From the NCBI RefSeq assembly GCF_016026235.1, contig NZ_CP065613.1: 64,000 nucleotides of DNA; one strand, 5' to 3'. Below, one piece after another: positions 4,476 to 51,215 of the stretch. Position 1 is the first letter of the stretch; every line of letters starts with the position of its first letter. A program made the position numbers and the translations under genes. The stretch comes from Escherichia coli (GTDB lineage Bacteria; Pseudomonadota; Gammaproteobacteria; Enterobacterales; Enterobacteriaceae). A model generated the notes under the pieces. That model did not search any database, was not told the origin of the DNA, and saw only the letters and a list, made by a program, of their open reading frames with translations.

Positions 4476-5431
4476 AGCTGAGCGGTAAAGAACTGAGCGC
4501 CGTCGCGAAGAGCCTCGTCGGCGGTTTTCATCATCCGTGAATAATGCAAAAAGGCGTGCAGCGTGCCTGGGTAGAGTTTGAACTCACAGGGCTGCTGATG
4601 CGCCGCTAACGTCTGGTAAAGCAGACGGCTGTCATCCAGCAGCGGATCGAACTCCGCCCCGGCAATAAAACAGGGCGGAACTTCGCGAGTGAGATCATTA
4701 TTAAACAGACAGTAATACGGCGACTCGCGGTCCGCGTCGTTGCTTAAATACGCCTCTTCATACATCTGCAAATCCTGTTGCGTTAAGCCATCCCAGACAC
4801 CGCCCAACAGACGACGAGTCACGGAATCCCGTAATCCGTAAAGCCCATACCACAGCAAAACACCCGCAATTTTACCGCAATCGATCTGTTTATCACGCAA
4901 CCACAACGCACTGGCGAGCGCCAGCATGGCACCTGCGGAATCACCGGCAAAGCCAATGCGGGACATATTGATTTGATAATCCTCCGCCTGTTGGTGGAAA
5001 TGACAACAAGCAGCCACAATTTCCTCTATCGCTTGCGGAAAACGTGCTTCAGGTGAAAGGGTGTAATCAATACCAATCACCGTACATTGGCTGTAGCTTG
5101 CCAGCAGGCGCATGATGCGATCGTGGGTATCGAGATTGCCGAGAATAAAACCGCCTCCATGCAAATAAAATAGCGTCGCTGGGCTATCTGGCTGCGGACA
5201 AAAGAGACGTGTTTCCACCTGCCCATATTTTGTTGGAACCATGTAAGCTCTGGTTGCCATTTCTGGAGCGCCCGCATTCCAGAATCGGCGCTCAAGCGTG
5301 TAATACTGTCGTTGCTCAGCAATCGTTCCCGTTGCGGGCCAGGGCGGTAAATCAGGCTGAAGAGTATTCACAACGGTCTTCATTTCAGCAGAAATAAGGT
5401 CCAGAACAGGTAATTTGTTTTCCGGCTTCAT
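4472..5431 (-). CDS. aes: Acetyl esterase (alpha/beta hydrolase, HSL family)
   Basis: 319-aa ORF with HGGG and GDSAG esterase motifs; its 3' end overlaps the hemH stop by 4 bp (convergent). Confidence 0.93.
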
Positions 5432-5582
5432 ACAAAAACTCCTTTCAAATTACGTCATTGTAAGGAACCACTGCCATGAAAATGCGATCCCGCCTGCTGA
5501 TATTGAAACTGGCTGCGTCTCGCGCGCTCCCGTCAGATTGTGTTAACATTCGCCGCTCAGTTAACCACCCGTAAAAACAACC

Positions 5583-6887
5583 ATGAAATTTCCCGGTAAA
5601 CGTAAATCCAAACATTACTTCCCCGTAAATGCACGCGATCCGCTGCTTCAGCAATTCCAGCCAGAAAACGAAACCAGCGCCGCCTGGGTCGTAGGTATTG
5701 ACCAGACGCTGGTCGATATTGAAGCGAAAGTGGATGATGAATTCATTGAGCGTTATGGATTAAGCGCCGGGCATTCACTGGTGATTGAGGATGACGTAGC
5801 CGAAGCGCTTTATCAGGAACTAAAACAGAAAAACCTGATTACCCATCAGTTTGCGGGTGGCACTATTGGTAACACCATGCACAACTACTCGGTGCTCGCG
5901 GACGACCGTTCGGTGCTGCTGGGCGTCATGTGCAGCAATATTGAAATTGGCAGCTATGCCTATCGTTACCTGTGTAACACCTCCAGCCGTACCGATCTTA
6001 ACTATCTACAAGGCGTGGATGGCCCGATTGGTCGTTGCTTTACGCTGATTGGCGAGTCCGGGGAACGTACCTTTGCTATCAGCCCTGGCCACATGAACCA
6101 GCTGCGGGCTGAAAGTATTCCGGAAGATGTGATTGCCGGAGCCTCGGCTCTGGTTCTCACCTCTTATCTGGTGCGTTGCAAGCCGGGTGAACCCATGCCG
6201 GAAGCAACCATGAAAGCCATTGAGTACGCGAAGAAATATAACGTACCGGTGGTGCTGACGCTGGGAACTAAGTTTGTCATTGCCGAGAATCCGCAGTGGT
6301 GGCAGCAATTCCTCAAAGACCACGTCTCTATCCTTGCGATGAACGAAGATGAAGCCGAAGCGTTGACCGGAGAAAGCGATCCGTTGTTAGCATCTGACAA
6401 GGCACTGGACTGGGTTGATCTGGTGCTGTGCACCGCAGGGCCAATCGGCTTGTATATGGCGGGCTTTACCGAAGACGAAGCGAAACGTAAAACCCAGCAT
6501 CCGCTGCTGCCGGGCGCTATAGCCGAATTCAACCAGTATGAGTTTAGCCGCGCCATGCGCCACAAGGATTGCCAGAATCCGCTGCGTGTCTATTCGCACA
6601 TTGCGCCGTACATGGGCGGGCCGGAAAAAATCATGAACACCAACGGAGCAGGGGATGGCGCACTGGCAGCGTTGCTGCATGACATTACCGCCAACAGCTA
6701 CCACCGTAGCAACGTACCAAACTCCAGCAAACATAAATTCACCTGGTTAACTTATTCATCGTTAGCCCAGGTATGTAAATATGCTAACCGTGTGAGCTAT
6801 CAGGTACTGAACCAGCATTCACCTCGTTTAACGCGCGGCTTGCCGGAGCGTGAAGACAGCCTGGAAGAGTCTTACTGGGATCGTTAA
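5583..6887 (+). CDS. gsk: Inosine-guanosine kinase
   Basis: 434-aa ORF recognised as Gsk (PfkB-type sugar kinase fold). Confidence 0.95.
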   Translation: MKFPGKRKSKHYFPVNARDPLLQQFQPENETSAAWVVGIDQTLVDIEAKVDDEFIERYGLSAGHSLVIEDDVAEALYQELKQKNLITHQFAGGTIGNTMHNYSVLADDRSVLLGVMCSNIEIGSYAYRYLCNTSSRTDLNYLQGVDGPIGRCFTLIGESGERTFAISPGHMNQLRAESIPEDVIAGASALVLTSYLVRCKPGEPMPEATMKAIEYAKKYNVPVVLTLGTKFVIAENPQWWQQFLKDHVSILAMNEDEAEALTGESDPLLASDKALDWVDLVLCTAGPIGLYMAGFTEDEAKRKTQHPLLPGAIAEFNQYEFSRAMRHKDCQNPLRVYSHIAPYMGGPEKIMNTNGAGDGALAALLHDITANSYHRSNVPNSSKHKFTWLTYSSLAQVCKYANRVSYQVLNQHSPRLTRGLPEREDSLEESYWDR

Positions 6888-6901
6888 GTTATCGTCGGTT
6901 C

Positions 6902-6985
6902 GTAGGCCAGCTAAGGCGTTCACGCCGCATCTGGCATTTTGCTCTCAATGCCTGATGCGACGCTGGCGCGTCTTATCAGGCCTAC
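6902..6985. repeat. REP/BIME palindromic units (two, opposite orientation)
   Basis: gcctgatgcgacgctggcgcgtcttatcaggcctac and a degenerate inverse copy between convergent gsk and ybaL. Confidence 0.85.
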
Positions 6986-7016
6986 ATATCCGCGCCTATT
7001 ATCCGGCAACCACCGT

Positions 7017-8693
7017 TTACCCCGTCACCACTTCACCCGCCGGTGGCGTTTCCAGCAGTTCCAGCATAGTACGGGCAATTTCACGCTCGCCCATCACTAC
7101 CTGATTCGCACCACGTTCGGTGATATACGCCACTTCATCGTCATAATGGGCGCGGGCAATAATCTCAATATCCGGATTTTTCGCGCGGGCAGATGCCACA
7201 ATCTCACCCGCTTCATAACCGTTGGGGATCGTCAGGATCAGCCATTTTGCACATTCCAGATGCGCCAGTTGCATAATTTCTTCGTTCGCTGCATTGCCCA
7301 ATACTGCGCGGACCCCGCGCTCTCGCAGCTCATCAACACGGGTTCGTGACGTCTCAATCACCACCAGCGGAATATCAGAGGCGAGCAATTTCTCCCCCAG
7401 CAGGCTGCCTACACGACCGTAACCCACCAATAGCGCATGGTTGCAAATATCCACTGGGATCTGCTTCTCTTCTTCGATTGCCTCTTCCAGCGTCTGCTCT
7501 TCCAGCGTTTCGGTCTTCGCCAGATATTTCTCCAGCAGCGCAAACAGGACCGGATTGAGCATAATCGACAAAATCGCACCTGCCAGTACCAGGTTCTGCC
7601 CGGCTTGCGGCAACAGATCCAGCGCCATGCCCAGTCCCGCCAGGATAAACGCGAACTCACCAATTTGCGCCAGGCTGGCGGCGATAGTTAATGCCGTACG
7701 TTGGGAGTGACCAAACAGTCGCACCAGGAAAAATGCGGCTAACGACTTACCAAACAGAATAATCGCCAGCGTCGCCAGCACTGCCAGCGGTTGCTGAATC
7801 AGAATTAACGGATCAAACAACATCCCGACGGAGACAAAAAACAGCACCGCAAACGCGTCGCGCAATGGCAGCGTATCGTGGGCGGCACGGTGACTCAGTT
7901 CAGACTCGTTCAGTACCATCCCGGCAAAGAACGCACCGAGTGCAAAGGAGACATCAAACAGCTCTACCGCACCAAAGGCAATCCCTAACGCCAGCGCCAG
8001 CACCGACAGGGTAAACAGCTCGCGAGAACCGGTTGCCGCGCTGCGTGCCATAATCCACGGCACCAGACGGCGACCTACCAGCATCATAATGGCGATAAAC
8101 GCGATCACTTTGCCGATGGTGATCCCCATATCGACTGCAAGAGTGGCAAAGCCCACATCGCCCTGTTCCATCATTCCTGCCACTGCGGGCAGCAACACCA
8201 GCGTCAGAACCATTACCAGGTCTTCCACAATCAACCAACCGATGGCGATTTGCCCACGCTGACTGTCAATTAATTGCCGTTCTTCAAGTGCGCGCAGTAA
8301 CACCACGGTACTGGCGGTGGAAAGACATAAACCGAACACGATACCGGTCATTAACGACCAGCCCAGCACGGCAGAGAGCGCCATACCCAGCAGCGTCGCC
8401 ACGGCTATCTGGGCGATCGCACCGGGAATGGCGATGGCCTTTACCGCCATCAAATCCTTCAGCGAAAAGTGCAGACCCACGCCAAACATCAACAGAATGA
8501 CGCCCAGTTCAGCCAGTTCCGGCGCAAGCTTGGTATCGGCAACAAAGCCCGGAGTGAATGGTCCTGCCAGCACACCCGCTAACAGATATCCCACCAGAGG
8601 AGAAATACGTAGTTTATTGGCCAGCATGCCGAGGATAAAGGCGAGCACAAGGCCGCCAACAATGGTGGTGATAAGCGGGGTGGCGTGATGCAT
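7017..8693 (-). CDS. ybaL: CPA2-family K+/H+ antiporter with C-terminal TrkA-N (RCK) domain
   Basis: 558-aa ORF, polytopic membrane N-terminus plus GxGxxG Rossmann C-terminus; recognised as YbaL (KefB-like). Confidence 0.9.
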   Translation of the reverse strand: MHHATPLITTIVGGLVLAFILGMLANKLRISPLVGYLLAGVLAGPFTPGFVADTKLAPELAELGVILLMFGVGLHFSLKDLMAVKAIAIPGAIAQIAVATLLGMALSAVLGWSLMTGIVFGLCLSTASTVVLLRALEERQLIDSQRGQIAIGWLIVEDLVMVLTLVLLPAVAGMMEQGDVGFATLAVDMGITIGKVIAFIAIMMLVGRRLVPWIMARSAATGSRELFTLSVLALALGIAFGAVELFDVSFALGAFFAGMVLNESELSHRAAHDTLPLRDAFAVLFFVSVGMLFDPLILIQQPLAVLATLAIILFGKSLAAFFLVRLFGHSQRTALTIAASLAQIGEFAFILAGLGMALDLLPQAGQNLVLAGAILSIMLNPVLFALLEKYLAKTETLEEQTLEEAIEEEKQIPVDICNHALLVGYGRVGSLLGEKLLASDIPLVVIETSRTRVDELRERGVRAVLGNAANEEIMQLAHLECAKWLILTIPNGYEAGEIVASARAKNPDIEIIARAHYDDEVAYITERGANQVVMGEREIARTMLELLETPPAGEVVTG

Positions 8694-28286: not shown

Positions 28287-28300
28287 TGACTGGTGTTAGA

Positions 28301-28603
<303 letters not shown>

Positions 28604-28632
28604 GAACAGTGTGCATTTTGGCAATAAATCTG

Positions 28633-28657
28633 AAACCAACTGTCATGTCGGTTTTTT
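28633..28657. repeat. 25-bp direct-repeat copy A (aaaccaactgtcatgtcggtttttt), 24/25 identical to copy B at 29109-29135
   Basis: Read directly from the sequence; the two copies bracket the small-ORF module. Confidence 0.7.
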
Positions 28658-28658
28658 A

Positions 28659-28687
28659 AAGGCCGAAGGTGGTAAACCTTCGGCCTT
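28659..28687 (-). terminator. Strong hairpin (11-bp stem aaggccgaagg / ccttcggcctt) 17 nt downstream of the small-ORF stop
   Basis: Perfect stem with a 7-nt loop; on the minus strand it is followed by a second weaker hairpin with a U-rich tail (copy A). Confidence 0.5.
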
Positions 28688-28703
28688 AGCTACGTTTCCT
28701 CAG

Positions 28704-28787
28704 TTATTCAATAAACTGACGGATCAGTTCCAGCAGCGCGATTAGCGCCTTAAGCACGATGAGAACTTTATCGAGAAAAGTTTTCAT
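28704..28787 (-). CDS. Candidate 27-aa type I toxin-like peptide (DinQ/TisB-like), MKTFLDKVLIVLKALIALLELIRQFIE
   Basis: ATG with a GGGAG RBS 8 nt upstream; amphipathic single-helix peptide; the LIALLELIR stretch matches my memory of E. coli DinQ; structured 3' end; candidate antisense RNA nearby. Confidence 0.45.
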   Translation of the reverse strand: MKTFLDKVLIVLKALIALLELIRQFIE

Positions 28788-29012
28788 CCGTTGCTCCCTT
28801 AAGGGAGAAAGACAATCACAGCTTACCCTTACGTTGCCTGTAACTATGATTTTCTTCATGTGCTAGATGAGGACTGCCTCTCTCCAAATTAGAGCACCAG
28901 AATCAGCACCACCTGTATCCTGACCAGGACTTAAAAGTACTTTTCCGCACTGCGGTAATCCCTTGAGGCAGTATCACTACTAGCGTCGGGATTGTATCGC
29001 CAACATAGCTGT

Positions 29013-29135
29013 TTGAATATGTAGGCATCCTGACTTATAATTCACTTGCTAGATGAGGACTGTTTCATTTCTGCCCGGAACCACCAAGTCTTGGGCGGAA
29101 AAAATAAAAAAACCGACTGTCATGTCGGTTTTTTT
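29013..29135 (+). ncRNA. Candidate small RNA: TTGAAT-17bp-TATAAT promoter (29013-29041), predicted start near 29048, terminator hairpin plus T7 at 29111-29135
   Basis: Near-consensus sigma-70 promoter and intrinsic terminator bracket about 88 nt with no ORF; the 5' end carries a 16-nt core (tgctagatgaggactg, 29047-29062) identical to 28861-28876 in the presumed leader of the toxin-like ORF. Confidence 0.35.
29109..29135. terminator. Bidirectional A-tract/hairpin/T-tract terminator (also terminates selU); direct-repeat copy B
   Basis: aaaaaaaccgac-tgtcat-gtcggttttttt; 63 nt downstream of the selU stop on the minus strand. Confidence 0.65.
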
Positions 29136-29198
29136 ATATCTGTATTCTGGTGCAACCATTCTGTTCTCACGACAATCGCCGTTTCAGAATACCGCCCA

Positions 29199-42147: not shown

Positions 42148-42156
42148 TGAATTTAC
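42148..42156. repeat. Target-site duplication TGAATTTAC (left) of the IS1 insertion
   Basis: Identical 9-mer at 42925-42933 directly flanking the other IS1 end. Confidence 0.9.
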
Positions 42157-42211
42157 GGTAATGCTGCCAACTTACTGATTTAGTGTATGATGGTGATTTT
42201 AAGGTGCTTGC

Positions 42212-42487
42212 GTGGCTTCCATTTCCATCAGATGTCCTTCCTGCTCCGCTACTGAAGGCGTGGTGCGTAACGGCAAAAGCACTGCCGGACATCAGCGCTA
42301 TCTCTGCTCTCATTGCCGTAAAACATGGCAACTACAGTTCACTTACACCGCCTCTCAGCCCGGTACGCACCAGAAAATCATTGATATGGCCATGAATGGC
42401 GTCGGATGTCGCGCCAGTGCACGCATTATGGGCGTTGGCCTCAACACGGTTTTACGTCACTTAAAAAACTCAGGCCGCAGTCGGTAA
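42212..42487 (+). CDS. insA: IS1 InsA (transposition inhibitor / N-terminal part of transposase)
   Basis: 91-aa ORF, GTG start, zinc-finger CxxC...CxxC and HTH; recognised as InsA with several substitutions relative to the K-12 copies as I recall them. Confidence 0.9.
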
Positions 42488-42909
42488 CCTCGCGCATACA
42501 GCCGGGCAGTGACGTCATCGTCTGCGCTGAAATGGACGAACAGTGGGGCTACGTCGGTGCTAAATCACGTCAGCGCTGGCTGTTTTACGCGTATGACAGG
42601 ATACGGAGGACGGTTGTGGCGCACGTCTTCGGTGAACGCACTCTGGCCACACTGGAGCGTCTTCTGAGCCTGCTGTCGGCCTTTGAGGTCGTGGTATAGA
42701 TGACGGATGGCTGGCCGCTGTATGAATCACGCCTGAAGGGAAAGCTGCACGTTATCAGCAAGCGTTACACTCAGCGCATTGAGCGACATAATCTGAATCT
42801 GAGACAACATCTGGCAAGGCTGGGACGGAAGTTACTGTCGTTCTCAAAATCGGTGGAGTTGCATGACAAGGTCATCGGGCATTATCTGAACATAAAACAC
42901 TATCAGTAA
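42406..42909 (+). pseudogene. insB: IS1 insB frame interrupted by an in-frame amber codon (TAG at 42697-42699)
   Basis: The -1 frame relative to insA is open from 42406 but stops at TAG 42697-42699 (...AFEVVV* then MTDGW...); canonical IS1 has TGG (Trp) there as I recall. Confidence 0.7.
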
Positions 42910-42924
42910 GTTGGAGTCATTACC

Positions 42925-42933
42925 TGAATTTAC
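42925..42933. repeat. Target-site duplication TGAATTTAC (right) of the IS1 insertion
   Basis: Identical to 42148-42156. Confidence 0.9.
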
Positions 42934-42936
42934 TAC

Positions 42937-42963
42937 AAAAAAAGCCACGGTATAAACCGTGGC
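42937..42963 (-). terminator. Rho-independent terminator of allE
   Basis: On the minus strand: stem gccacgg / ccgtggc with loop, followed by 7 T (A-run at 42937-42943 on plus). Confidence 0.7.
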
Positions 42964-43005
42964 AAAATCCAACATAGCTAAAAATAATCAGGCGAGTGGT
43001 ATGAC

Positions 43006-45058: not shown

Positions 45059-46108
45059 TTATTGCGCAAAGGGATTTTTCGTTTCGTATGACGTGTTATA
45101 AAGCGCGTCGGAAATTAAATACTGGTAAATATCATCAACAATTTCGATGCCTTCGACGGCGGCTTTGCGTTGTTTAATATCCTGATCCTGTCCGGGATAA
45201 TAAACCTGATTAAAACCGGGCGCGGGGGTAATGGCATTTAATTCGCGCATGGTCTGGCTAAGATGTTGACGGAATAATTCGCTGGAGGAGAAAAAGTTCG
45301 GGTTAATAACTACATGTAATTGCCCCAAATTACGCCCGGCGTGTAAATCGTCATACATCGAACTAACCTGTCGCCCGAACGGTAAGCCGAGTAAGACGCC
45401 TGAGAGGACGTCAATCATCATCATCAGGCCATACCCTTTCGGCCCGGCTGCGGGGAGCAGAGCATGTACCGCGAACGGATCGGTTGTTGGTGCACCGTTT
45501 TTATCGACCGCCCAGGTATCCGGGATAGACATATTACGCGAGCGGGCGTCGAGCACTTTTCCCCATGCCTGTACGGTAGTCGCCATATCAAAGGTAAGGA
45601 TCTCGTCGCCTTCTCCCGGCGCGGCAAAGGCCAGTGGGTTAGTACCGTAGTAAATTTCCGCGCCGCCAAACGGCACCACCATTGGATCGGACTGGCACAT
45701 CGAAATGCCAATTAATCCGGCGCGGGCTGCCTGCTGCACAAAATAAGAGATTGCGCCGCTGTGACCCATCCGGCTGATACCGACCACCGCAACGCCATTT
45801 TGCTGGGCGGTTTCGATGGCATGTTCCATACCCATTTTCGCCGCGACCTGTCCGGCGGCATTGTCGGCATGTAAAATTGCCGAGCACGGCCCGGTTTCCT
45901 CAAGACGAAACTCCGGTTCGCGGTTGGTGCCGCCTTTTGAAATGCGTTCCGCGTAGTATTCCACGCGCACCGCGCCATGAGAGTGGATCCCTCTGGCATC
46001 GGCGTAAACCAATACTTCAGCCACGGTTGCAGCGTGCTCACGTTTTAACCCAGCCTGGCAGAGTTTATTCTCAATTAGCTGGTGGAGTGTTTCCCGACTG
46101 ATTTTCAT
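45059..46108 (-). CDS. allD: Ureidoglycolate dehydrogenase
   Basis: 349-aa ORF (Ldh2/malate-sulfolactate dehydrogenase family). Confidence 0.9.
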   Translation of the reverse strand: MKISRETLHQLIENKLCQAGLKREHAATVAEVLVYADARGIHSHGAVRVEYYAERISKGGTNREPEFRLEETGPCSAILHADNAAGQVAAKMGMEHAIETAQQNGVAVVGISRMGHSGAISYFVQQAARAGLIGISMCQSDPMVVPFGGAEIYYGTNPLAFAAPGEGDEILTFDMATTVQAWGKVLDARSRNMSIPDTWAVDKNGAPTTDPFAVHALLPAAGPKGYGLMMMIDVLSGVLLGLPFGRQVSSMYDDLHAGRNLGQLHVVINPNFFSSSELFRQHLSQTMRELNAITPAPGFNQVYYPGQDQDIKQRKAAVEGIEIVDDIYQYLISDALYNTSYETKNPFAQ

Positions 46109-46167
46109 CTGTCTTCCTTTTTAACGACGGTGTGAAGCATGACTGCAATTAACATACAGGGAAAATA

Positions 46168-46187
46168 TCTGGATTATGTGATCCAGA
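46168..46187. promoter_or_regulatory. Perfect palindrome TCTGGAT-N6-ATCCAGA in the allD-fdrA divergent intergenic region
   Basis: 7-bp arms with a 6-bp spacer, about 60 bp upstream of the allD start; candidate operator, for example for the LysR-type activator AllS. Confidence 0.4.
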
Positions 46188-46424
46188 CAGGCAAAAAAAT
46201 ATAGTTAGAATTTATTTGATAATCTTCGCGCTTTTAACCTGGTTTTTAAAACAACCATGCTTATTAAAAAATAACGCGTAATAGTCTGGCGGTTATTTGA
46301 ATTCTTTTGTTAATAATCCCTGTGTGATATTCATCACCTTATTTACCCGTTGTCATCGATACCGTAATCGCCACATTAACACTGCTCGTGCAATTGCCAT
46401 GGGTGCAATTTTTAAGGAGTTGTT

Positions 46425-48092
46425 ATGATCCACGCCTTTATTAAAAAAGGGTGTTTTCAGGATTCGGTCAGTTTAATGATTATTTCACGAAAACTCAGCG
46501 AATCAGAAAATGTTGATGATGTTTCCGTAATGATGGGTACGCCCGCCAATAAAGCGTTATTAGATACCACAGGTTTCTGGCATGACGATTTTAATAACGC
46601 CACGCCGAACGATATTTGCGTGGCAATTCGTAGCGAAGCGGCGGATGTGGGGATCGCGCAGGCGATTATGCAGCAGCTTGAAGAGGCGCTAAAACAACTG
46701 GCGCAGGGGTCAGGCAGCAGCCAGTCCTTGACGCAGGTGCGTCGCTGGGACAGTGTCTGTCAGAAATTACCCGATGCCAATCTGGCGCTGATTTCAGTGG
46801 CTGGCGAGTATGCGGCGGAGCTGGCGAATCAGGCGCTGGATCGCAACCTCAACGTGATGATGTTCTCCGATAACGTCACGCTGAAAGATGAAATCCAACT
46901 TAAAACCCGCGCGCGAGAAAAAGGCTTGCTGGTGATGGGGCCGGACTGCGGTACGTCGATGATTGCCGGCACGCCGCTGGCTTTTGCTAACGTGATGCCG
47001 GAAGGCAATATTGGCGTCATTGGCGCTTCCGGTACCGGGATTCAGGAGCTGTGCTCGCAGATTGCGCTGGCAGGGGAGGGAATTACTCACGCGATTGGCC
47101 TTGGCGGCCGCGACCTCAGCCGTGAAGTGGGCGGCATCAGTGCGCTAACAGCGCTGGAAATGCTCAGTGCAGACGAGAAAAGCGAAGTGCTGGCATTTGT
47201 TTCAAAACCACCTGCCGATGCTGTGCGTCTGAAAATTGTTAATGCCATGAAAGCAACCGGCAAACCGACGGTGGCGCTGTTTTTAGGTTATACCCCGGCG
47301 GTGGCCCGTGACGAGAATGTCTGGTTTGCCTCCTCGCTGGATGAGGCCGCACGCCTGGCTTGCCTGCTTTCACGCGTTACGGCGCGACGTAACGCGATAA
47401 CGCCAGCCAGCAGCGGATTTATTTGCGGTTTGTATACCGGCGGTACGCTGGCTGCCGAAGCGGCGGGATTACTTGCCGGACACCTTGGCGTGGAAGCCGA
47501 TGATGCCCATCATCACGGCATGATGCTCGACGCCGATGGTCACCAGATTATTGACCTCGGCGATGATTTCTACACAGTCGGGCGTCCCCATCCGATGATC
47601 GACCCAACCTTACGCAACCAGTTAATTGCCGATCTCGGCGCTAAACCGCAAGTGCGTGTGCTGCTGCTTGATGTCGTGATTGGCTTCGGTGCGACTGCCG
47701 ATCCTGCCGCCTCGCTGGTAAGCGCCTGGCAAAAAGCCTGTGCTGCGCGTTCAGACAATCAACCACTGTATGCCATTGCCACGGTGACAGGCACTGAACG
47801 TGACCCGCAATGCCGCTCGCAGCAAATCGCCACGCTGGAAGATGCGGGGATTGCGGTCGTGAGTTCGCTACCGGAAGCCACCTTGCTGGCGGCAGCGTTA
47901 ATTCATCCGCTCTCACCTGCCGCACAGCAACACACACCGTCATTACTGGAAAACGTCGCCGTGATTAACATCGGATTACGCAGTTTTGCGCTGGAGCTAC
48001 AAAGCGCCAGCAAACCGGTTGTGCATTACCAATGGTCGCCAGTCGCCGGCGGCAATAAAAAACTGGCTCGTTTATTAGAACGTTTGCAATAA
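46425..48092 (+). CDS. fdrA: FdrA (CoA-binding / succinyl-CoA synthetase alpha-like domain protein)
   Basis: 555-aa ORF recognised as FdrA. Confidence 0.85.
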   Translation: MIHAFIKKGCFQDSVSLMIISRKLSESENVDDVSVMMGTPANKALLDTTGFWHDDFNNATPNDICVAIRSEAADVGIAQAIMQQLEEALKQLAQGSGSSQSLTQVRRWDSVCQKLPDANLALISVAGEYAAELANQALDRNLNVMMFSDNVTLKDEIQLKTRAREKGLLVMGPDCGTSMIAGTPLAFANVMPEGNIGVIGASGTGIQELCSQIALAGEGITHAIGLGGRDLSREVGGISALTALEMLSADEKSEVLAFVSKPPADAVRLKIVNAMKATGKPTVALFLGYTPAVARDENVWFASSLDEAARLACLLSRVTARRNAITPASSGFICGLYTGGTLAAEAAGLLAGHLGVEADDAHHHGMMLDADGHQIIDLGDDFYTVGRPHPMIDPTLRNQLIADLGAKPQVRVLLLDVVIGFGATADPAASLVSAWQKACAARSDNQPLYAIATVTGTERDPQCRSQQIATLEDAGIAVVSSLPEATLLAAALIHPLSPAAQQHTPSLLENVAVINIGLRSFALELQSASKPVVHYQWSPVAGGNKKLARLLERLQ

Positions 48093-48101
48093 GGGGTTCC
48101 C

Positions 48102-49361
48102 ATGTTTACATCAGTGGCGCAAGCCAATGCTGCGGTTATCGAACAAATTCGTCGCGCTCGTCCACACTGGCTGGATGTGCAACTGGCTTCTTCACTTATC
48201 AGCGAACTACACCCGGGCAAAACACTGCTTCACGCCGGGCCGCCAATGCGCTGGCAGGAGATGACCGGACCCATGAAAGGGGCGTGCGTGGGCGCATGTC
48301 TGTTCGAAGGTTGGGCGAAAGATGAAGCGCAGGCGCTGGCAATACTGGAGCAGGGGGAAGTGAACTTCATTCCTTGTCACCATGTGAATGCCGTCGGGCC
48401 AATGGGCGGTATTACTTCTGCCAGTATGCCGATGCTGGTGGTCGAGAACGTGACCGACGGCAACCGGGCGTACTGCAACCTCAACGAAGGTATCGGCAAA
48501 GTGATGCGTTTTGGCGCTTACGGCGAAGATGTCCTGACTCGCCATCGCTGGATGCGCGATGTGTTAATGCCAGTATTAAGCGCGGCGCTGGGGCGCATGG
48601 AGCACGGTATCGATCTCACGGCGATGATGGCGCAGGGCATTACCATGGGCGATGAGTTCCATCAACGCAATATTGCTTCCTCAGCACTGTTAATGCGTGC
48701 GCTGGCCCCACAAATTGCTCGCCTCGATCATGATAAACAGCACATCGCGGAAGTGATGGATTTCCTCAGCGTGACCGATCAGTTCTTCCTCAACCTTGCG
48801 ATGGCTTACTGCAAGGCGGCGATGGATGCTGGCGCGATGATCCGCGCAGGCAGCATCGTCACGGCTATGACCCGCAACGGCAATATGTTCGGGATTCGGG
48901 TAAGCGGGCTGGGCGATCGCTGGTTTACTGCGCCTGTAAACACTCCGCAAGGTCTGTTTTTCACCGGCTTCTCGCAGGAGCAGGCGAACCCGGATATGGG
49001 CGATAGCGCGATTACCGAAACCTTTGGTATCGGAGGTGCGGCAATGATCGCAGCGCCTGGCGTAACGCGCTTTGTCGGTGCGGGTGGCATGGAAGCCGCC
49101 AGAACGGTATCTGAAGAGATGGCGGAAATTTACCTTGAACGCAATATGCAGTTGCAGATCCCTGGCTGGGATTTCCAGGGCGCGTGCCTGGGGCTGGACA
49201 TTCGTCGCGTGGTAGAAACCGGCATTACGCCACTCATCAATACCGGTATCGCCCATAAAGAGGCGGGGATCGGGCAGATTGGCGCAGGCACCGTGCGGGC
49301 ACCGCTGGCGTGTTTTGAACAGGCCCTGGAAGCACTGGCTGAAAGTATGGGGATTGGTTGA
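48102..49361 (+). CDS. ylbE: DUF1116-family protein YlbE (intact)
   Basis: Uninterrupted 419-aa ORF 9 bp after fdrA. Confidence 0.85.
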
Positions 49362-49371
49362 GGAACGCACA

Positions 49372-50187
49372 ATGACGATCATCCATCCTCTGCTTGCCAG
49401 TAGTAGCGCACCGAATTATCGCCAGTTCTGGCGGTTAGCGGGAGTGTGGCGGCGGGCGATTAACCTGATGACGGAAAGCGGCGAACTGTTAACGCTGCAT
49501 CGTCAGGGTAGTGGTTTCGGCCCCGGAGGATGGGTGCTTCGCCGCGCGCAATTCGATGCGTTATGCGGTGGATTATGCGGCAATGAACGACCACAGGTTG
49601 TGGCTCAAGGGATTCGCCTCGGACGTTTCACGGTTAAACAGCCACAGCGTTATTGTTTGCTGCGTATTACGCCGCCTGCGCATCCTCAACCGCTTGCAGC
49701 TGCATGGATGCAACGCGCGGAGGAAACCGGGCTTTTCGGGCCACTGGCGTTGGCGGCAAGCGATCCGCTGCCCGCTGAATTACGCCAGTTTCGTCACTGT
49801 TTTCAGGCCGCGCTCAATGGCGTTAAGACCGACTGGCGGCACTGGCTGGGTAAAGGCCCCGGATTAACGCCAAGTCATGATGACACGCTGAGCGGAATGC
49901 TGCTGGCGGCCTGGTATTATGGTGCTTTAGATGCGCACTCCGGTCGTCCGTTTTTTGCCTGTTCCGACAATCTTCAACTCGTTACCACAGCGGTGAGCGT
50001 CAGTTATTTACGTTATGCCGCGCAAGGATATTTCGCCTCGCCACTCCTGCATTTTGCTCATGCTCTGAGTTGCCCGAAACGTACCGCTGTTGCGATTGAT
50101 TCGCTGCTGGCGCTGGGGCATACGTCAGGGGCAGATACGCTGCTGGGGTTCTGGCTTGGTCAACAATTATTACAAGGAAAACCATGA
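49372..50187 (+). CDS. ylbF: YlbF (DUF2877-type) protein
   Basis: 271-aa ORF from MTIIHPLL (GAGGAA RBS); the track start at 49279 is an upstream extension overlapping ylbE. Confidence 0.85.
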
Positions 50188-51077
50188 AAACACTGGTTGT
50201 AGCTCTTGGGGGCAACGCCTTACTCCAGCGCGGTGAGGCGCTGACGGCGGAAAATCAATATCGCAATATCGCCAGTGCTGTCCCCGCGCTGGCGCGCCTG
50301 GCCCGTTCTTATCGGCTGGCGATTGTTCACGGCAACGGGCCGCAGGTGGGGCTGCTGGCATTACAGAATCTGGCGTGGAAAGAGGTAGAACCGTATCCGC
50401 TGGATGTGCTGGTAGCGGAAAGTCAGGGGATGATTGGCTATATGCTGGCGCAGAGTTTGAGCGCACAGCCGCAGATGCCGCCTGTCACGACGGTGCTGAC
50501 GCGCATTGAAGTTTCGCCTGATGATCCGGCGTTTTTGCAGCCAGAGAAGTTTATCGGTCCGGTTTATCAGCCAGAAGAACAAGAGACACTAGAAGCGGCT
50601 TACGGCTGGCAGATGAAACGTGATGGTAAATATTTACGCCGGGTGGTGGCGTCTCCGCAACCGCGTAAAATTCTCGACAGCGAAGCCATCGAGTTGTTGC
50701 TCAAAGAGGGGCATGTGGTGTTTTGCAGTGGCGGCGGCGGTGTGCCTGTGACGGATGACGGAGCAGGGAGTGAAGCAGTGATTGATAAAGATCTCGCCGC
50801 TGCGTTGCTCGCCGAGCAGATTAATGCCGATGGACTGGTGATCCTCACCGATGCTGATGCGGTATATGAAAACTGGGGAACGCCGCAGCAACGTGCCATT
50901 CGCCATGCCACACCGGATGAGTTAGCGCCATTTGCCAAAGCCGATGGTTCGATGGGGCCGAAGGTAACGGCGGTGAGTGGTTATGTCAGAAGCCGTGGTA
51001 AACCCGCGTGGATTGGGGCGTTATCGCGAATTGAAGAGACGCTGGCGGGCGAAGCGGGGACCTGTATTTCGCTGTAG
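50184..51077 (+). CDS. ybcF: Carbamate kinase-like protein
   Basis: 297-aa ORF of the amino-acid kinase family; overlaps the ylbF stop by 4 bp. Confidence 0.88.
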
Positions 51078-51085
51078 TGATGAGA

Positions 51086-51198
51086 GCATCCGGCAATCGG
51101 CGCACCATGCCTGATGCGACGCTTGACGCGTCTTATCAGGCCTACAATGGGTACCGGATCGGTGTAGGCCGGATAAGGCGTTCACGCCGCATCCGGCA
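51086..51198. repeat. REP/BIME units between convergent ybcF and purK
   Basis: gcctgatgcgacgcttgacgcgtcttatcaggcctac and gtaggccggataaggcgttcacgccgcatccggca. Confidence 0.9.
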
Positions 51199-51215
51199 AT
51201 CAAATGAGCACCAGG

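Follow-up and report, generated by a model that had tools for sequence, protein, structure and literature searches.

In the window analysed here, a stretch of 64,000 nucleotides of Escherichia coli DNA (contig NZ_CP065613.1 of assembly GCF_016026235.1), four genes follow one another on the plus strand beside the genes of allantoin catabolism: fdrA, ylbE, ylbF and ybcF, also named allF, allG, allH and allK. The first, fdrA (46425-48092, ATG to TAA), encodes 555 amino acids, its limits being taken from the list of open reading frames (ORFs) and from comparison with strain MG1655. It is followed by ylbE (48102-49361, ATG to TGA), an uninterrupted frame of 419 codons for 419 amino acids, by ylbF (49372-50187, ATG to TGA, 271 amino acids) and by ybcF (50184-51077, ATG to TAG, 297 amino acids). 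Only 9 bp (48093-48101) separate fdrA from ylbE and 10 bp (49362-49371) separate ylbE from ylbF, and the start of allK overlaps the stop of allH in a 4-bp ATGA (50184-50187); the coordinates thus confirm the tight packing described in an initial annotation of this DNA. For ylbF, the longest ORF begins at a TTG at 49279; the start adopted is an ATG at 49372 that is preceded by a GAGG Shine-Dalgarno sequence and agrees with the K-12 annotation. The gene for ureidoglycolate dehydrogenase, allD, is a 349-amino-acid ORF on the minus strand (45059-46108) that heads the divergent allDCE unit. The divergence from allD reported earlier is therefore real, with 316 bp of AT-rich DNA (46109-46424) between the two units. 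This intergenic region has the same length as in K-12 and a G+C content of 36%, against 56% for the operon, and allD itself shares 99.1% nucleotide identity with K-12 allD, with 4 amino-acid differences and no stops. At the other end, the convergent allK-purK intergenic region (51078-51215) carries palindromic units of the repetitive extragenic palindromic (REP) type and is the likely end of the operon. It measures 138 bp, compared with 194 bp in K-12, and has one REP-type unit fewer; no canonical intrinsic terminator was found there by scan.

The alleles were compared base by base with the MG1655 reference NC_000913.3. All four genes have the same lengths in the two genomes, at 97.8-98.3% nucleotide identity, and neither internal stops nor indels were found in fdrA, ylbE, ylbF or ybcF relative to that reference. 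The proteins differ by 11, 7, 3 and 3 amino acids, respectively (544/555 residues identical in FdrA, 268/271 in YlbF and 294/297 in YbcF). The ratio of nonsynonymous to synonymous substitution rates (dN/dS) against K-12 is 0.14 for fdrA, 0.17 for ylbE, 0.09 for ylbF and 0.06 for ybcF, and values of 0.06-0.17 point to purifying selection on all four. These are confirmed as real, conserved genes and not chance ORFs. Among 5,426 complete E. coli genomes, 5,423 have the 4.65-kb cluster, and in 5,407 at least 80% of it is covered.

Domains were assigned with a Pfam scan at E<=0.01 and with NCBIfam models at their curated cut-offs. FdrA carries a CoA_binding domain (PF02629, residues 193-287) and a Ligase_CoA domain (PF00549, residues 336-491), both above cut-off; it scores 1039.4 bits over residues 1-555 with the NCBIfam model NF004760 FdrA (cut-off 433) and matches a solved structure, PDB 3DMY 'Protein fdrA', at E 4e-303. 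One FdrA change, Q363H (47509-47517, residues 362-364), creates a run of three histidines, of which H362 is invariant in three aligned FdrA homologues; it is probably neutral. YlbE matches PF06545 with 326.8 bits (gathering score 27), a family now named "Oxamate carbamoyltransferase subunit AllG", and has a homologue of solved but uncharacterised structure, the DUF1116 protein 3CLQ of Enterococcus faecalis. YlbF matches PF11392 with 100.8 bits (cut-off 25), now named "Oxamate carbamoyltransferase subunit AllH". The window protein carries both invariant motifs of AllH, GxGxGLTPxxDD (160-171) and GHxSGxD (249-255), and keeps all of the family-invariant residues G160, G162, G164, T166, P167, D170, D171, G249, S252, G253, D255 and G259. 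A sequence search of PDB returned no solved relative of YlbF; its AlphaFold model has a confidence score (pLDDT) of 94.7. Among the 24 amino-acid substitutions relative to K-12, none falls at a column that is invariant in the AllG or AllH alignments. The last gene product, YbcF, has a Pfam AA_kinase domain, scores above the cut-offs of two NCBIfam equivalog models (NF006926, 617.3 bits against 416; TIGR00746 arcC, 422.9 bits against 358.25) and matches solved carbamate kinases at E 4e-89 to 1e-36. The equivalog models thus agree with the earlier description of a terminal carbamate kinase homologue. The gene order is also found far outside E. coli. AllF-AllG-AllH recurs in distant genomes in which AllH is only 27-31% identical, and in one such lineage (two contigs) a carbamate-kinase-family gene lies directly downstream, whereas in another it is upstream, on the opposite strand. 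In both lineages a gene for a major facilitator superfamily transporter precedes allF.

Taken with the published work on K-12, these features identify the region almost certainly as the E. coli allFGHK operon, whose products form the oxamate branch of anaerobic allantoin breakdown. The candidate genes were singled out computationally in 2012 (PMC3364942). In 2022, YbcF was established as the catabolic carbamate kinase AllK, with a KM of 0.47 mM for carbamoyl phosphate and 0.43 mM for ADP, and the four genes were shown by reverse transcription PCR to be co-transcribed in K-12 (PMC9843812). FdrA, YlbE and YlbF, purified in 2024 as oxamic transcarbamylase, were given the new name AllFGH (PMC11326118). 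The purified AllF-AllG-AllH complex converts oxamate and carbamoyl phosphate to oxalurate, with a KM of 1.3 mM and a Vmax of 15.4 U/mg for carbamoyl phosphate and a KM of 36.9 mM and a Vmax of 27.0 U/mg for oxamate (PMC11326118). Single deletions of allF, allG or allH abolish or nearly abolish the formation of oxamate from allantoin and divert the flux to oxalate, and full restoration of oxamate formation requires allFGH together (PMC11326118). The experiments that established the pathway were done in part in the K-12 strain MC4100. Within the operon, allF (fdrA) is the large subunit of oxamic transcarbamylase, with domains like those of the succinyl-CoA synthetase (SCS) alpha subunit plus a second Ligase_CoA domain; allH (ylbF) is the small subunit and allG (ylbE) a further subunit; and allK (ybcF) is a catabolic carbamate kinase (EC 2.7.2.2). 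In the case of the window proteins, oxamic transcarbamylase activity (EC 2.1.3.5) can be inferred from their 98-99% identity to the K-12 proteins. In this pathway the divergently encoded AllD oxidises ureidoglycolate to oxalurate, which the operon consumes, and AllFGH then turns oxalurate and phosphate into oxamate and carbamoyl phosphate. AllK passes the phosphate of carbamoyl phosphate to ADP, giving ATP and carbamate, and the carbamate decays to NH3 and CO2. With all operon and allantoin-cluster genes intact in the window, the pathway is expected to work as in K-12.

Control of the operon can likewise be read against the K-12 literature. In 2025, activation by AllS and ArcA was reported: an allF'-'lacZ fusion gave 15-19 Miller units aerobically and about 4,000 anaerobically with allantoin, falling to about 100 units in allS or arcA deletion mutants (PMC12535856). 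In electrophoretic mobility shift assays (EMSA), AllS bound a 60-bp fragment at -203/-144 and ArcA a 60-bp fragment at -142/-83 (PMC12535856). When these coordinates are transferred from that paper to the window, the equivalent of the AllS fragment lies on the plus strand at 46222-46281 (-203 to -144 from the allF ATG, with a predicted motif centred at -181) and that of the fragment bound by phosphorylated ArcA (ArcA-P) at 46283-46342, also on the plus strand (-142 to -83). A single promoter in the 316-bp allD-allF region would drive all four genes, with AllS and ArcA activating it under anaerobiosis in the presence of allantoin. A scan for promoter and terminator consensus sequences found sites no more numerous than in shuffled sequence. 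The allD-allF region differs from that of K-12 by 13 substitutions, 9 of them in the AllS fragment and 3 in the ArcA-P fragment, and the AllS-fragment changes include an A>G at -183 inside the predicted AllS TTAACCTGATTTTTAA core. An unusual promoter marked by the 9 changes was considered and rejected, since 616 E. coli genomes share essentially the same allele (at least 99% identical to the intergenic allele of the window) and K-12 is the outlier, at the divergent end with 95.9%. Judged by these alignments, the regulatory differences from K-12 amount to ordinary polymorphism.

Two points weigh against assigning the region to a working oxamate branch. The fragment to which AllS binds in K-12 differs in the window at 9/60 positions. 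Deletion of ybcF in K-12 has no visible phenotype (PMC9843812), and for that reason what the last step contributes energetically is drawn from enzymology and not from growth. The first readers of this DNA had proposed a route from oxalurate through carbamoyl phosphate to ATP, with FdrA, YlbE and YlbF as subunits of an oxamate carbamoyltransferase. Both proposals hold for E. coli K-12: the route has since been demonstrated experimentally (PMC11326118, PMC9843812, PMC12535856), and the purified complex is active and needs all three genes (PMC11326118). What does not hold is the description of the branch as poorly characterised, as its function, operon structure and regulators were published from 2021 to 2025. 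The pathway proposal was therefore right but is already known, and there is nothing novel in the window itself. The locus is ordinary and already explained, and it matters little as a discovery.

The state of ylbE calls for a correction. The initial annotation set an intact ylbE in this strain against a frameshifted gene in K-12 MG1655. An uninterrupted ylbE is indeed what the window contains, free of stops and indels when set against K-12. However, the contrast with MG1655 disappears: NC_000913.3 annotates ylbE (b4572, formerly b0519; product YP_009029994.1) as an intact gene of 1260 bp, and alignment of the window gene with this allele reveals no indel, so that the MG1655 gene is intact as well. 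A real difference from MG1655 is thus rejected, as the lengths are equal and the frameshift can be traced to legacy records. For instance, the W3110 record NC_007779.1 still labels ylbE "frameshifted", at 1259 bp. In a three-way alignment with the window, the W3110 gene differs from the version 3 MG1655 gene at two sites: it has four G residues for five at nt 252-256, and at nt 114 an A replaces G. They correspond to the differences published for MG1655-derived strains against the old MG1655 reference as '547,694 A>G' and '547,831 +G'. The homopolymer of five G residues (G5) lies at 48353-48357 on the plus strand (ylbE nt 252-256, codons 84-86), where it is read directly as intact in the window, and loss of one G from the run ends the frame after codon 86. 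The frameshift was already called a probable sequencing error, absent from all other E. coli, in 2012 (PMC3364942), and a further K-12 strain, NCM3722, has an intact ylbE (PMC3045373).

The spread of the four-G (G4) allele was assessed with a 63-base probe, which matched 5,416 E. coli records. Among the records listed, 4 are exact matches, namely W3110 and three assemblies (CIT, LIM and CAR) of 4.54-4.64 Mb that have the G4 site at the same coordinate as W3110; at most 5 of the 5,416 fall in the band of at least 99% identity. In the remaining genomes listed, including an independently sequenced MG1655, 64 bases were matched at 98.4%, consistent with the extra G. The frameshift attributed to K-12 thus stands for legacy annotation and records and falls for the current MG1655 reference. 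In E. coli, current MG1655 included, ylbE is normally intact, and its integrity is not a strain-specific trait; the "ylbE pseudogene of K-12" arose as an artefact in the reference sequence in use before 2013 and persists in a few records. The value of the present analysis is corrective, and its sole addition is to restrict the "ylbE frameshift" to legacy records of K-12.

Older annotation offers a different account of FdrA. It makes the protein an acyl-CoA synthetase of the nucleoside diphosphate (NDP)-forming type, such as an oxamate:CoA ligase that activates oxamate for catabolism, or a mere multicopy suppressor of ftsH mutations, with YlbE and YlbF as unrelated proteins of unassigned function. 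The domain content lends itself to this account, since FdrA has CoA_binding and Ligase_CoA domains and matches the alpha subunits of succinyl-CoA synthetase; the RefSeq name in most genomes is still 'acyl-CoA synthetase FdrA', and the CanOE paper of 2012 argued for such a role (PMC3364942). Published enzymology counts against it, however. It is a three-protein purified complex that performs the transcarbamylase reaction, oxamate production needs all three genes, and oxamate accumulates as an end product and is not consumed (PMC11326118). The phosphohistidine loop, the hallmark of NDP-forming CoA ligases, also appears to be missing from FdrA. Residues 118-291 of FdrA align with residues 66-239 of E. 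coli SucD, and the alignment ends at SucD 239, short of the loop (GHAGA, with His247). Its counterpart, FdrA 291-299, varies between the three FdrA homologues compared and has a histidine in one but not in two, the window FdrA being among the latter, and a GHAG motif occurs nowhere in FdrA. By the Pfam scan, none of the four operon genes encodes an ATP-grasp domain. An NDP-forming acyl-CoA synthetase would have both a phosphohistidine loop and an ATP-grasp partner, and these pairwise and small alignments suggest that FdrA lies outside that class. The acyl-CoA synthetase account is largely refuted, and we regard it as very improbable.

The domains of FdrA bear on where the chemistry of the transcarbamylase may occur. 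The second Ligase_CoA domain (336-491) bears a strongly conserved IIDLGDDxYTxGRPHPMIDP, and a published gain-of-function change that enhances activity, D296Y (PMC8550087), falls in what is left of the missing loop. One tentative possibility, which we think has a minor chance of being correct, is that AllFGH reuses the acyl-phosphate site ('site I') of the SCS superfamily. FdrA would then be an SCS-alpha-like module fused to an SCS-beta-like Ligase_CoA domain, with the phosphohistidine loop apparently lost, and the resulting pocket could accommodate carbamoyl phosphate or free phosphate. The site for oxamate or oxalurate could then be supplied by AllG and AllH, through GxGxGLTPxxDD and GHxSGxD. 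In PDB, no fold relatives of AllG and AllH were found apart from the uncharacterised 3CLQ, a homologue of AllG. This reading concerns the enzyme family and not the window.

A second alternative is that the operon is silent or decaying in this lineage, a relic heading for loss. In its favour is the nearest sequenced relative, FDAARGOS_943, the sole genome that is more than 99% identical over the cluster (99.9%). There, an insertion sequence splits fdrA about 138 bp into the gene (equivalent to about 46563 in the window) and allE has an internal stop, the disrupted fdrA and allE lying at 5001-7586 and 1582-2367 of that locus. The sister strain is thus losing the oxamate branch, whereas the window retains it intact, with neither the fdrA insertion nor the allE stop. 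The two genomes also have in common a 768-bp IS1 between glxK and allE, and the 9 substitutions in the AllS fragment could be taken in the same sense, but the promoter allele is a common natural variant. The IS1 (42157-42924) is flanked by clean 9-bp TGAATTTAC target duplications (42148-42156 and 42925-42933) and lies where the 3' ends of glxK and allE converge, so that it interrupts no gene; damage by IS1 to the allantoin cluster is rejected on these grounds. Its insB frame has an in-frame TAG at 42697-42699, and the transposase is therefore probably dead. As one uninterrupted alignment, the IS1 junction occurs in FDAARGOS_943 only (99.7%). From selU to purE, all 20 genes checked (20/20), including the whole allantoin cluster, align to K-12 without gaps or internal stops, and the low dN/dS of the operon genes also argues against decay. 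Among the flanking K-12 genes checked, 33/33 have no internal stop and 32 are gapless, with a 6-base gap in sfmD; a decaying, Shigella-like genome is not evident in these 64 kb and is likewise rejected. There is thus little to recommend the idea of a relic, which is most unlikely, and an intact allFGHK operon is the better description of the locus.

The wider window is collinear with K-12 498,000-564,304 at about 98.4% identity, with two exceptions: the IS1 described above and a missing rhsD region. Abutting the right end of IS1, just downstream of allE, is a match to the Rfam small RNA STnc480 (42933-42999, 87 bits; gathering score 72). At 28290-29196, the K-12 rhsD-ybbC-ylbH-ybbD-ylbG block of about 7.3 kb is absent, and repeats of the REP and bacterial interspersed mosaic element (BIME) type, with Rfam naRNA4 matches, are found instead. 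The same segment holds a DinQ-like hydrophobic ORF of 27 amino acids, MKTFLDKVLIVLKALIALLELIRQFIE, inside a minus-strand ORF at 28704-28859, and there is a match to the Rfam AgrB antisense RNA at 29049-29137. Together these features resemble a type I toxin-antitoxin paralogue of the dinQ/agrB type, at a locus other than that of K-12.

The closest known system is the K-12 allFGHK operon itself (b0518, b4572, b0520, b0521), which has the same order, lengths, junctions and 316-bp spacing to allD, and whose proteins are 98-99% identical. The window departs from it by the 24 amino-acid substitutions, the 13 regulatory-region substitutions and the missing REP unit downstream, and nothing suggests a functional difference between the two operons. 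With succinyl-CoA synthetase, the likeness is one of parts. Besides the alignment of FdrA with SucD, the C-terminal domain of SucC has a 'VLVNIFGGIV' that resembles, by inspection, the 'LLLDVVIGFGA' of the second Ligase_CoA domain of FdrA. However, succinyl-CoA synthetase partners its FdrA-like alpha subunit with a beta subunit, whereas the partners of AllF are AllG and AllH; both enzymes may handle an intermediate of the acyl-phosphate type. With the classical transcarbamylases, such as aspartate transcarbamylase (ATCase, PyrB), ornithine transcarbamylase (OTCase, ArgI/ArgF) and YgeW, AllFGH shares the type of reaction, in which a carbamoyl group passes reversibly between phosphate and a nitrogen acceptor. 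Its pairing with a carbamate kinase for ATP synthesis parallels that of the catabolic OTCase in the arginine deiminase pathway. The classical enzymes are homotrimeric, whereas AllFGH has three different subunits (PMC11326118), and the Pfam scan at E<=0.01 found neither the classical carbamoyl-phosphate-binding domain nor the Asp/Orn-binding domain in any of the three, and no Pfam family in them beyond those named above. The original authors likewise report that AllFGH lies outside the classical transcarbamylase family (PMC11326118). Thus, AllFGH acts like a transcarbamylase but stands outside the ATCase/OTCase family, and the remaining interest of the system lies in a transcarbamylase unrelated to the classical ones.

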